A program made the translations under genes and the position numbers. From positions 18,042 to 82,041 of the forward strand of contig JANNWW010000074.1 of the NCBI GenBank assembly GCA_031409255.1: DNA of 64,000 bases, read 5' to 3'. Shown one piece after another: positions 2 to 39,096 of the stretch; position 1 is the first letter of the stretch; each line of letters starts with the position of its first letter. The notes under the pieces were generated by a model, which was not told where the DNA came from, ran no database searches, and saw only the letters and a program-made list of their open reading frames with translations. This DNA is from Crocinitomicaceae bacterium. GTDB lineage: Bacteria; Bacteroidota; Bacteroidia; Flavobacteriales_D; Crocinitomicaceae.

Positions 2-907
2 TACTTAGCAGCGCGTGAAATGCAGGAGAAAAATCTAGATAGAAGTTTTCTTACCCAATGTTTTGAAGACTTGCGTGCTTCTCGTCCAACAGCAGTGAAC
101 TTATTTTGGGCTTTAGATCGGATGAGTAAAGCGTTAGAAAACGGAGATAATTTAGTGCAAATTGCTTGGGAAGAAGCAGGGAAAATTGTGGAGGATGATA
201 TTGAAACCTGTCGCATGATTGGAGTTCACGGTCTGCCTTTAATTGAAGAAATTTCAAAAAGGAAACAAGGAGAAGTTGTCAATATATTAACTCATTGTAA
301 TGCAGGAATGCTTGGTTGTATTGAATGGGGAACAATTTCTTCGCCCATTTATCAAGCGGTTCAAAAAGGAATTAATTTACATGTTTGGGTAGATGAAACC
401 CGCCCGCGCCTCCAGGGTGCTAATTTGACAGCATATGAGTTAACGCGTCACAATGTGCCTCATACCTTAATTGTTGATAATCAAGGCGGACATTTAATGC
501 AGCACGGAATGGTTGATATGTGTATTGTTGGAACCGATAGAACTACTCGTCAGGGAGATGTGGCAAACAAAATCGGAACCTATTTAAAAGCATTGGCTGC
601 TCATGATAATAACATTCCTTTTTACGTTGCTTTGCCTTCCACAACTTTAGATTGGACAATTAAAGATGGATTGAAAGAAATACCAATCGAACAGCGAAAT
701 CAAGACGAAGTAAGATGGGTAGTTGGAAAAAGTAAGGCAACTGGTAAAATGGATGAAGTATTGATTTGTCCAGAAACAACTAATGCTAGTAATTATGGCT
801 TTGATGTCACTCCAGCAAGGTTGGTTACTGCATTGATAACTGAAAGAGGCGTTTGCGCAGCTAGTGAGGAAGGTTTAATAAATTTATTTCCAGAAAATAA
901 AGTGTAA
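2..907 (+). CDS. mtnA: S-methyl-5-thioribose-1-phosphate isomerase (5' end runs off the window)
   Basis: RPTAVNLFWA, LTHCNAG, WVDETRPRLQGA, DVANKIGTY, FDVTP motifs. The frame is open from base 2; the ORF track starts at internal ATG 20. Confidence 0.93.
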   Translation, partial: YLAAREMQEKNLDRSFLTQCFEDLRASRPTAVNLFWALDRMSKALENGDNLVQIAWEEAGKIVEDDIETCRMIGVHGLPLIEEISKRKQGEVVNILTHCNAGMLGCIEWGTISSPIYQAVQKGINLHVWVDETRPRLQGANLTAYELTRHNVPHTLIVDNQGGHLMQHGMVDMCIVGTDRTTRQGDVANKIGTYLKALAAHDNNIPFYVALPSTTLDWTIKDGLKEIPIEQRNQDEVRWVVGKSKATGKMDEVLICPETTNASNYGFDVTPARLVTALITERGVCAASEEGLINLFPENKV

Positions 908-915
908 TTTTTTTT

Positions 916-1057
916 GGTGGCAATTCCGCCTACGTTTGCAATTCCACTTTCAATAAAAGAGCTCACATCAATTTAAAAGAACTTCCTTCGGTCGTTTTTT
1001 AAATGTGTGTTCACTTTACTTTTTTTGAAGCGTTTCATTTTCACCTTCGTCGGGCCA
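916..1057. repeat. Dispersed structured intergenic element, copy 1 (copy 2 at 38734-38875)
   Basis: Near-identical blocks GGCAATTCCGCC, TTTAAAAGAACTTCC..GGTCGTTTTTT and CATTTTCA.CTTCGTCGGGCCA occur in the same order in both 142-nt copies. Confidence 0.85.
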
Positions 1058-8704: not shown

Positions 8705-8778
8705 GCCGGTGTAGCTCAGTTGGCTAGAGCAGCTGATTTGTAATCAGCAGGTCGGAGGTTCGAGTCCCTCCACCGGCT
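8705..8778 (+). tRNA. trnT: tRNA-Thr(TGT)
   Basis: Acceptor GCCGGTG/CACCGGC, anticodon arm GCTGA-TT-TGT-AA-TCAGC, T loop GTTCGAG. Confidence 0.97.
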
Positions 8779-8784
8779 CTTTTT

Positions 8785-8866
8785 GGGAGTGTCGCATAGT
8801 GGCTATTGCAGTAGACTGTAAATCTATCACCTTTCGGTATCACTGGTTCGAGTCCAGTCACTCCCA
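8785..8866 (+). tRNA. trnY: tRNA-Tyr(GTA)
   Basis: Acceptor GGGAGTG/CACTCCC, anticodon arm GTAGA-CT-GTA-AA-TCTAT, long variable arm. Confidence 0.96.
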
Positions 8867-8884
8867 CAACAATAATTTTTAAAA

Positions 8885-8957
8885 GCGGGAGTAGCTCAGT
8901 TGGTAGAGCGTCAGCCTTCCAAGCTGAGGGTCGCGAGTTCGAGTCTCGTCTCCCGCT
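8885..8957 (+). tRNA. trnG: tRNA-Gly(TCC)
   Basis: Acceptor GCGGGAG/CTCCCGC, anticodon arm TCAGC-CT-TCC-AA-GCTGA. Confidence 0.97.
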
Positions 8958-8994
8958 CTTTTAAAGAAAATATTTTAATATAAAAGGATTGTTT

Positions 8995-9066
8995 GCCGGT
9001 GTAGCTCAGGGGTAGAGCGCTTTCTTGGTAAGGAAGAGGTCACGAGTTCAATTCTCGTCATTGGCT
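8995..9066 (+). tRNA. trnT: tRNA-Thr(GGT)
   Basis: Acceptor GCCGGTG/CATTGGC, anticodon arm CTTTC-TT-GGT-AA-GGAAG. Confidence 0.95.
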
Positions 9067-10385: not shown

Positions 10386-10458
10386 ACGGGCGTAGCTCAG
10401 CTGGTAGAGTAGTGGTCTCCAAAACCATTGGCCGTGGGTTCGAATCCTACCGCCCGTG
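10386..10458 (+). tRNA. trnW: tRNA-Trp(CCA)
   Basis: Acceptor ACGGGCG/CGCCCGT, anticodon arm GTGGT-CT-CCA-AA-ACCAT. Canonical tuf-trnW-secE position. Confidence 0.96.
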
Positions 10459-37983: not shown

Positions 37984-38250
37984 CTATTTCTTCCTAGCCG
38001 CCTTCTTCTGTCTGCGCGCATTCTTCTTTACACTCTTTTTAGCTTCTTTACTTTGGCGTTTCCAATATGCTTTTTGTGATTGTTTCTTCGCTTTTTTAGC
38101 AATTTTCGCCTCTTTTTTTCTTCGTTTAGCAATTTTTTTTTCTGCTTCTTCAACTGATGCAGCTTCTTGGGCATAGCTTGTTTGAGTGACAGGTGTCAAA
38201 ATAAAAAACAAGCACAATATCCAGGTAATCAATTTCGTTTGTATCTTCAT
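37984..38250 (-). CDS. Small exported Lys/Arg/Ala-rich hypothetical protein
   Basis: Signal peptide ending SYA/Q; highly basic helical mature part. Confidence 0.65.
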   Translation of the reverse strand: MKIQTKLITWILCLFFILTPVTQTSYAQEAASVEEAEKKIAKRRKKEAKIAKKAKKQSQKAYWKRQSKEAKKSVKKNARRQKKAARKK

Positions 38251-38290
38251 GGCAATGTTTTTGAGTCAAAAGGATAATTCTAGTTTATAT

Positions 38291-38719
38291 ATGTCGATTT
38301 CGAAAGTACTTATTTTTTTTCTTTTTACAAGTGTGTTTTTTTCCTGCAATAAAAACAACGAATATCCACTGCCCTCCATTCCATTCGATTTCACTATAGA
38401 TTTGTCTTTGCCTTCTTATCAAGAAATCAATGCAGTTGGTGGTTGGTGTTACGTTGCTGGAGGTTTAAAGGGAATTGTTATTTACAGAAAAGGGATTGAT
38501 GAATTTGTAGTCTGGGAACGTCAATCTCCGCTCGATCCACAAGGGACATGCGCAGAGGGGGTTTCACCTAAGAGTACTAATTTTTTAGAATTAGATGATC
38601 CTTGTTCTGAGGCGGTTTTTTCTTTGTATGATGGTTCTCCGATTCAAAATTCTGATTGGGGACTTCGCCAATACCGTTACGATTGGAACGGATCAAATCT
38701 TTTGCGGATTTATAATTAA
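38291..38719 (+). CDS. Hypothetical lipoprotein, degenerate Rieske-like family
   Basis: Lipobox VFFSC; GIVIYR..WER.SP..C..DPCS..FSL.DG.P..L.QY. ATG 38291 avoids overlap with the divergent gene. Confidence 0.55.
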   Translation: MSISKVLIFFLFTSVFFSCNKNNEYPLPSIPFDFTIDLSLPSYQEINAVGGWCYVAGGLKGIVIYRKGIDEFVVWERQSPLDPQGTCAEGVSPKSTNFLELDDPCSEAVFSLYDGSPIQNSDWGLRQYRYDWNGSNLLRIYN

Positions 38720-38733
38720 TATCGAACTATTTT

Positions 38734-38875
38734 GGCTGGCAATTCCGCCTGCGTTTTCAATTCCATTCTTAAAAAAAGCGTCAACTTGCTTTAAAAGAAC
38801 TTCCGTTGGTCGTTTTTTTAAGCTAAGTTCACGTTACTTTTTTTAGTTAATTCCATTTTCATCTTCGTCGGGCCA
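38734..38875. repeat. Dispersed structured intergenic element, copy 2
   Basis: Same blocks, order, length (142 nt) and orientation as 916-1057. Confidence 0.85.
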
Positions 38876-39096
38876 GAATAACTGCTTCACTGCATTTTAT
38901 AAATTGGTATTAAGTAAGGTTTCTGGTGAACATAATCGATATTAGCCGTAGTTAACCATTATTAACGGTTAAACAACAGCTCAAACGGATAAAATAAAAT
39001 GTTAGTATCTTTCCCACTTGCGCTAATTTCATACCATATTCGCTAAGCTAATTATTACTTTAGCTACTTTTCACTAACTTCGCAGAAAAACATATA

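Follow-up and report, generated by a model that had tools for sequence, protein, structure and literature searches.

The locus analyzed here raises the question of what kind of element is represented by two similar 142-nt stretches, at 916–1057 and 38734–38875 of the window, that is, the 64,000-nt stretch of a Crocinitomicaceae genome (G000) that corresponds to C74:18042–82041 of the assembly. The original prediction described these stretches as copies of a long rod-like hairpin with conserved internal loops, selected for pairing, and offered three options for its identity: a multicopy non-coding RNA, a REP-like repeat or a 3′-UTR processing element. The two co-oriented stretches near stop codons are indeed present, with 80% identity over 146 nt, on the same strand and with two single-base gaps; they start 9 nt past the stop codon of ORF 20–907 (copy 1) and 15 nt past that of ORF 38186–38719 (copy 2), and all three sequence blocks said to be shared are found in both. 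The gene upstream of copy 1 (20–907, plus strand, from the ORF list, cut by the window start) encodes a protein that, from reading the sequence, we take to be methylthioribose-1-phosphate isomerase-like (MtnA-like), with orthologs of 81–85% identity in 12 congeners. The ORF upstream of copy 2 (38186–38719, plus strand) encodes a hypothetical protein (154 aa without a Pfam family in an outside gene call) and is kept, at 71% DNA identity, in the congener G013. The only coding overlap at copy 1 is a 57-aa minus-strand ORF that extends into the upstream gene. The window also contains, at 1062–1822, some 760 nt of additional DNA that separates the MtnA-like gene from the conserved gene after it and includes a Cys-rich ORF of 85 aa; in five congeners, the matching spacer is only 60–150 nt long. 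Four clustered tRNA genes are located at 8705–9066, and a fifth lies 1.3 kb further on, at 10386–10458.

Structure was assessed with two covariance models, R1, built from seven copies, and R2, built from 20 copies that came only from this genome and one congener. In an alignment of 63 copies from many genomes to R2, standard pairs occupy 88% of the cells, compared with 63% in column shuffles, both partners vary in all 31 of the tested pairs, and covariation scores 0.59, where the shuffles reach 0.17 and slid partners at most 0.11; this alignment was fitted to R2, so that these values are biased toward the structure of the model. A plain MAFFT alignment of seven paralogs shows double changes in 13 of 22 pairs. 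In the 63-copy alignment, both-side changes occur in 10 of 10 pairs of the A-run/T-run helix. The predicted selection for pairing is thus upheld by covariation across the 63 copies, and the case for structure rests on this covariation and not on folding energy because, folded as single sequences, copy 1 does not stand out (z −0.4) and copy 2 does so only modestly (z −2.8). Among the individual pairings proposed earlier, CACAT/ATGTG versus AACTT/AAGTT and the A-run/T-run arms are paired in the minimum-energy folds. The proposed pairing of ACG or GCG with CGT has to be abandoned, with only 55% of the cells paired family-wide; the register supported by the family consists instead of one C–G pair and a 3-bp mini-helix.

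Proceeding from the ends of the element inward, a T-rich tract with TGG leads into an outer helix of 5 bp; after an A/T bulge of 4 nt come a CNG/CNG helix, a pyrimidine–pyrimidine opposition with one C–G pair, a 9-by-9 region, an AAG/CUU helix and a long variable rod with an apical hairpin, the loop of which is usually UUC-N4-GGUC. The full copy 1, of subtype A, spans 914–1061 (without strand assignment; the Rfam Flavo-1 orientation, discussed below, is minus) and matches all 149 model positions, with 147 bits for R1 and 128 bits for R2. Its 5′ flank, delimited by comparison of the flanks of 50 copies, is the T-rich tract with TGG that abuts the outer helix (908–916). The first arm of the basal module (917–942), delineated by pair counts in the 63 copies, includes P1 (917–921, GTGGC), the bulge (922–925), P2 (926–928, CCG), C930, which is paired with G1049, two UNC triplets within 931–939 around the mini-helix at 934–936, and P3 (940–942). 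The variable long stem (943–1036) contains the A-run/T-run helix, 950–959 with 1019–1028, and, according to the folds, an apical hairpin at 972–1003 with the loop 983–993 (TTCCTTCGGTC). The second arm (1037–1058, from the same pair counts) includes P3′ (1037–1039), the segment 1040–1048 (TTCACCTTC) with the mini-helix partners at 1043–1045, G1049, P2′ (1051–1053, CGG) and P1′ (1054–1058, GCCAA). Copy 2, also of subtype A and without strand assignment, spans 38733–38879 (142 bits for R1, 126 bits for R2). Alignment and pair counts place its first arm at 38736–38761, with P1 at 38736–38740 (CTGGC), the bulge at 38741–38744, P2 at 38745–38747, C38749, the segment 38750–38758 and P3 at 38759–38761; the second arm, at 38855–38876, consists of P3′ (38855–38857), 38858–38866 (TTCATCTTC), G38867, P2′ (38869–38871) and P1′ (38872–38876, GCCAG).

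The compensatory character of the changes is apparent in the pair counts across the 63 copies: two P1 pairs are CG 40/UA 15/GC 4/AU 3 and CG 49/GC 10, and the middle pair of P2 is CG 37/UA 13/GC 7/AU 3. The 9-by-9 region is made up of two UNC-opposite-UNC triplets that flank the 3-bp helix (GC 25/AU 21, CG 31/UA 23), and the U·C and C·U oppositions, which on the opposite strand are G·A and A·G, are kept in 55–61 of the 63 copies. The result is a pair of dyad-symmetric 3×3 loops around a 2–3-bp helix, UNC/UNC on the plus strand and GNA/GNA on the minus strand. The dimensions of the element are similarly stable: the spacing between the basal arms is 95–99 nt in 23 of the 27 measured copies, and the overall length is 145–151 nt across copies of 32–70% G+C; short forms of 79–87 nt lack the rod. 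A T-rich run followed by TGG, TTG or AGG precedes most copies (50 flanks compared).

Within this genome, R2 detects 14 copies (69–128 bits), so that the anticipated multicopy character is confirmed, with a family size of no fewer than 14; BLAST and nhmmer searches of the whole assembly likewise recovered a third close copy and several diverged ones. The copies belong to three subtypes that differ chiefly in the apical loop, and the similarity between any two of them does not exceed 80%. Two elements of different subtypes are positioned face to face, 31 nt apart, at G000:C7:16320–16642, just upstream of the Rho gene (C7:14118–16169), the N-terminal half of which is a very long Q/N/P-rich low-complexity insert. 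At G000:C85:14062–14098, an isolated 37-nt remnant of the 3′ arm, a decayed copy, immediately follows a 117-aa ORF.

The distribution across genomes is patchy. A scan of 36 genomes of the genus with R2 yielded 14 copies in this genome, 9 in G013, one each in G015 and G040, and none in the others. In a sample of 401 genomes of the order, with seven candidates scored per genome, matches were found in 28 genomes that represent 12 of 101 genera and three families. A scan of named genomes for an exact pattern produced mostly chance matches, and the model confirmed 20 of the 80 listed loci; the confirmed carriers include Lishizhenia, Taishania, three Brumimicrobium records and metagenome-assembled genomes (MAGs) of Crocinitomicaceae and other Flavobacteriales, along with MAGs labeled Bacteroidales or Bacteroidia and one Competibacteraceae MAG. 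In the latter (CAZJFM01, labeled Candidatus Competibacteraceae, Gammaproteobacteria), there are two model-verified copies, L143 and L144, of 66 and 44 bits; their presence in this bin is a matter of mis-binning or transfer. The distribution of confirmed copies indicates that Crocinitomicaceae is the home family. With regard to a phage origin, none of the 9 pattern matches in viral contigs was confirmed by the model, with a pattern that detects only about 18% of the known copies.

The affinity of the element became apparent outside its home family. In a sample of 401 genomes of the phylum, R2 matches occurred in 12 genomes, all from a single low-GC genus of another order (g104), which, from its G+C content and the literature, is probably Flavobacterium. 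All 12 sampled genomes of this genus contain matches of 45–80 bits, as many as 7 of the 7 candidates scored in a genome are positive, and the copies are 146–151 nt long. Each of the 12 scanned loci of this genus also matches, over the same coordinates but in the other strand, the Rfam family Flavo-1 (RF01705), a hairpin element present in many copies in flavobacteria, one with 59.8 bits and eleven with 35–42 bits (E values of 1e-5 to 5e-4; the gathering score is 42), and all 12 carry a 60–75-nt insertion in the terminal stem relative to RF01705. The Rfam check suggested in the original prediction thus gave a divided answer: these related loci match the family, but the window copies themselves have no Flavo-1 match at the gathering score and, on 186-nt stretches at E ≤ 10, no match to any Rfam model. 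Similarly, the other copies from G000 and G013 match no Rfam family at E ≤ 1 or E ≤ 10, and the short forms match none either. The link of the window copies to Flavo-1 is therefore transitive. A register shift of one base, combined with the long stem, accounts for the lack of an RF01705 score for the G000 and G013 copies.

Comparison of the two architectures supports the link. The Rfam consensus consists of a 3-bp CNG helix, GaA opposite GgA, a 2-bp helix, GGA opposite guA, another helix and a variable stem; the UNC/UNC triplets of R2, read on the minus strand, are the GNA/GNA loops of this consensus. Both elements come from the same phylum, are multicopy and intergenic, occur in either orientation and are not tied to any gene class, and both combine a CNG/CNG helix, two 3×3 GNA/GNA loops around a short helix, a variable terminal stem, an A/T bulge and a flanking T-run. 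They differ in three respects. The helices around the first loop comprise 1+3 bp here and 2+2 bp in Rfam, which is the one-base register shift; the Rfam consensus shows no pairing at the outer 5-bp helix, which covaries here; and the terminal stem is about 95 nt long here, compared with about 25 nt in the canonical 76–80-nt form. In the original description, Flavo-1 was represented by 239 sequences with covariation and variable-length stems, was not deemed cis-regulatory and was given no function (Weinberg et al. 2010, PMC2864571 and supplements); Rfam classifies RF01705 as "Gene; sRNA", and a review lists Flavo-1 among the most abundant Rfam sRNA families (PMC9029176). Canonical copies of about 76–80 nt, detected with RF01705, number 40–127 per genome in four genomes of g104, 133 in one Crocinitomicaceae genome and 97 in a genome of another family. 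The present genome has three canonical matches, one of them at G000:C198:~946–1035, and the T-rich tract with TGG is also found ahead of a canonical copy in this genome. Judging by these sequence comparisons, both window sequences very probably represent a diverged, long-stem branch of the Flavo-1 superfamily. The feature is real and strongly structured, yet it is a branch of an already catalogued family and not a new kind of element; the presumed novelty is lost, and the sequence that had been declared unassignable belongs with the very motif that the original prediction mentioned in passing.

The assignment to Flavo-1 also bears on the strand. The plus strand had been assumed, whereas the Rfam orientation of Flavo-1 corresponds to the minus strand of the window. 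The evidence on this point is contradictory, and the wobble pairs disagree between helices. The minus strand is favored by the Rfam orientation and the conserved G·A-type oppositions, by the folding of the minus-strand RNA, which is better in 55 of the 63 copies, by about 5.5 kcal/mol on average and whatever the context, and, in the basal helices, by A·C intermediates (20 versus 2 G·U). The plus strand is favored in the apical stem, with G·U pairs in 32 and 17 copies. Given that the minus-strand folds are steadier in any gene orientation, selection for whichever strand is transcribed is not supported; a single-stranded DNA form, or the use of both strands, may be involved.

The genomic context helps to discriminate among the functional interpretations. 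The genes beside the copies are unrelated to one another; those that we read from sequence as housekeeping genes presumably encode an MtnA-like isomerase, a DegT-type aminotransferase, Rho, DapA, FabF, PrfC and RpsP. With respect to the flanking genes of 50 copies, the element lies with both genes in the sense orientation in 16 cases, with both antisense in 15, between convergent genes in 9 and between divergent genes in 5. One side is usually 4–60 nt from a stop codon, in either orientation of the element, and the side toward a gene start keeps about 100–200 nt; several antisense copies fill the spacers between co-directional genes, leaving only 15–35 nt free at either end. A Bacteroidota −7 box (TAnnTTTG) was found in 1 of 50 copies on each strand, at inconsistent positions. 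No intrinsic terminator is predicted at the two window copies, and neither orientation of the element is terminator-like, since on one strand the T-rich tract comes ahead of the hairpin and the other strand finishes with an A-run. Taken together, the random orientation, the tight spacers and the lack of a promoter box or terminator argue against independent genes as well as against a strand-specific role in the 3′-UTR. Of the three options offered originally, the REP-like intergenic repeat fits best, on account of the random orientation and the absence of a promoter box at a fixed distance; 3′-UTR processing fails as stated because half of the copies are antisense to the upstream gene. As to a bias in replication strand, the 22 listed matches in G753, which is a single contig, are divided into 13 on the plus and 9 on the minus strand, with no obvious switch from one half to the other, a comparison of low power.

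These data weigh on the two main rivals of the repeat interpretation, an sRNA family and a selected 3′-end hairpin. Under the former, the copies would be independently transcribed, trans-acting sRNAs, with the conserved loops binding a protein or pairing with targets. The strong covariation, the invariant loop residues and the constancy of length over a wide range of G+C are all compatible with this possibility, as are the conservation of two copies at orthologous sites (see below) and the context-independent advantage of the minus-strand fold, which fits a strand-specific RNA with G·A-closed loops; indeed, conserved loops and fixed length could equally denote a dedicated RNA with a cellular function. 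However, the −7 box is nearly absent and not at a fixed distance, there is no terminator-like site, orientation is random, some copies are squeezed between co-directional genes, and more than 100 copies per genome would be unusual for an sRNA gene. Furthermore, Flavo-1 matches in F. psychrophilum occur "indistinctly" in sense and antisense of transcribed regions, many are untranscribed, and no functional clue was obtained (Guérin et al. 2021, PMC9723704). On this evidence, we regard an sRNA family as an unlikely explanation.

We consider the second rival similarly improbable. It holds that the element is a cis-acting 3′-end hairpin, selected at each site, that stops or insulates transcription or shields the mRNA from 3′ exonucleases in either orientation. 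The positions of the copies speak for it: most are close to a stop codon and well removed from the next start, they are underrepresented between divergent genes (5 of 45), and no other terminator is predicted beside the two window copies. Nevertheless, such a role leaves the invariant mismatched loop residues and the fixed length unexplained, the arrangement of the T-tract and the A-run is not that of an intrinsic terminator, and the same genes manage without the element elsewhere, given that no element is present downstream of the gene orthologous to that at the copy-1 site in 12 congeners.

The comparison with G013, which differs from this genome by about 20–25% in coding DNA, provides insight into the evolution of the element. 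Three copies in G013 share site and orientation with copies here (sites C241, C189 and C135), and those at C189 and C135 align between the two genomes at 75–78%, in alignments that run into the flanking genes. An ordinary spacer compared between the two genomes is unalignable, save near the start of the next gene; that the elements remain alignable indicates that they are constrained. Other sites show turnover. At C164, after a tryptophan-dioxygenase-like gene, a subtype B copy lies antisense in this genome and a subtype A copy lies sense in G013, the latter being, by eye, about 90% similar to another G013 copy; at the copy-2 site, G013 has the orthologous spacer without the element. In a Lishizhenia genome, near-identical copies share about 70 nt of identical 3′ sequence. 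The copies of the present genome are at most 80% alike and thus give no indication of recent movement. Among the compared genomes, all of about 75–80% DNA identity and thus too diverged to show one, no clean empty site was found, and neither a target-site duplication nor a flanking direct repeat was detected across 50 copies or beside three young copies of G013. The element thus does not show the conserved terminal inverted repeats and target-site duplication of a MITE: its terminal helix P1 covaries, and no fixed terminal sequence was seen.

Several other repeats were observed in these genomes. A high-copy repeat of about 300 nt is located at the ends of at least 25 G000 contigs (e.g., C128:17535–17817, C152:1–281, C84:1–275 and C154:1–214) and adjoins one element copy in G013 (L054, 535–834); it is probably an IS or a MITE that breaks the assembly. 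At three G013 loci (L054, L055 and L056), composite repeat clusters are found 3′ of subtype A copies, with several modules common to the loci that include tandem 13-mers (GAGAGCGGRGAAY)n, a shared block with a small palindrome, TCCCGATTATTCGGGA, and (CGGATAATAA)n arrays.

On balance, the interpretation that we favor, as likely although by no means certain, is that of an intergenic palindromic repeat of about 147 nt, similar in kind to REP, ERIC or BOX, that belongs to a diverged long-stem branch of Flavo-1. Such a repeat would sit, in either orientation, in the non-coding spacer immediately after a stop codon, would have no promoter of its own and would be transcribed only on read-through from the neighboring gene. 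Inheritance would be mostly vertical, with occasional re-seeding at new or already used spacers. The preservation of the stems by compensatory change suggests that the element has to fold in single-stranded form, as RNA or DNA, and the symmetric purine/pyrimidine loops would be a likely docking site of a putative, probably dimeric, protein; any effect on the host would most likely be local, at the 3′ end of the neighboring transcript. Against this interpretation stands the observation that, in the genomes compared, no target-site duplication, clean empty site or mobilizing enzyme was seen.

The enzyme that was sought is a Y1 transposase. A palindromic sequence, many copies, an intergenic location, conserved ends around a variable middle and vertical persistence over long times are typical of REPINs, and the element shares all these properties. 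The search for a cognate Y1/RAYT gene was negative: the genome has no match to Y1_Tnp (PF01797), and the high-copy genomes G332 (133 copies), G465 (127 copies), G561 and G601 have none or only weak matches. Moreover, in 63 kb around 20 strong Y1 genes, a single Flavo-1 match was found, over 1 kb away from the gene; this is approximately the background density. Because Y1 is absent and, elsewhere, not flanked by Flavo-1, and with arms that are not simple inverted copies of one REP, mobilization of a REPIN-type element by a RAYT/IS200-family Y1 transposase is rejected as highly improbable.

The favored interpretation, a REP/ERIC/BOX-like repeat, can be set against known systems. REP/REPIN sequences with RAYT are likewise hairpin repeats kept by structure and persisting vertically, but the present genome lacks a cognate Y1 gene, and elsewhere Y1 genes occur without a flanking repeat. 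The ERIC/IRU sequences of enterobacteria are imperfect intergenic palindromes of about 127–150 nt that occur in both orientations, some at orthologous sites, with size variants produced by internal insertion; to our knowledge, they have no dedicated transposase. They resemble the present element in size, palindromic form, intergenic location in both orientations, occasional orthologous sites, size variants and the lack of a known dedicated transposase, although sequence and host phylum are unrelated and ERIC has no dyad-symmetric loop module. The BOX elements of Streptococcus pneumoniae are modular, with pairing, conserved terminal modules and an optional or variable middle, comparable to the 79–87-nt and ~147-nt forms here; unlike BOX, which varies by the number of boxB units, the long form here is of one tightly fixed length. 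Integron attC sites also lie just after stop codons, preserve structure over sequence and combine a basal part containing unpaired residues with a variable terminal stem; however, on reading, no RYYYAAC/GTTRRRY cores are present at the ends of the copies, and these are single and scattered, in contrast to the same-orientation arrays of attC.

More speculatively, and at present this is an improbable proposition, the Flavo-1 superfamily, including its long forms, could be a folded single-strand recognition site of a putative dimeric protein, with GNA/GNA docking and the ~147-nt rod as a length ruler, in the service of either hairpin-repeat mobilization without Y1/RAYT or an abundant ribonucleoprotein of Bacteroidota.

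For the Flavo-1 family, these findings imply that the RF01705 model misses a diverged branch that accounts for 14 copies in this genome and 9 in a congener, with further ones across Crocinitomicaceae, and that the motif gains an outer covarying helix and a fixed-length long form that are absent from the Rfam consensus. RAYT, the obvious candidate for a mobilizer of Flavo-1, is disfavored. The genomic behavior of the branch, with its random orientation, adjacency to stop codons, lack of promoters and one re-occupied site, is closer to that of a REP/ERIC-type repeat than to that of an sRNA gene, and in genome annotation, such loci should be labeled as Flavo-1-like repeats and not as new non-coding RNA genes or 3′-UTR elements.
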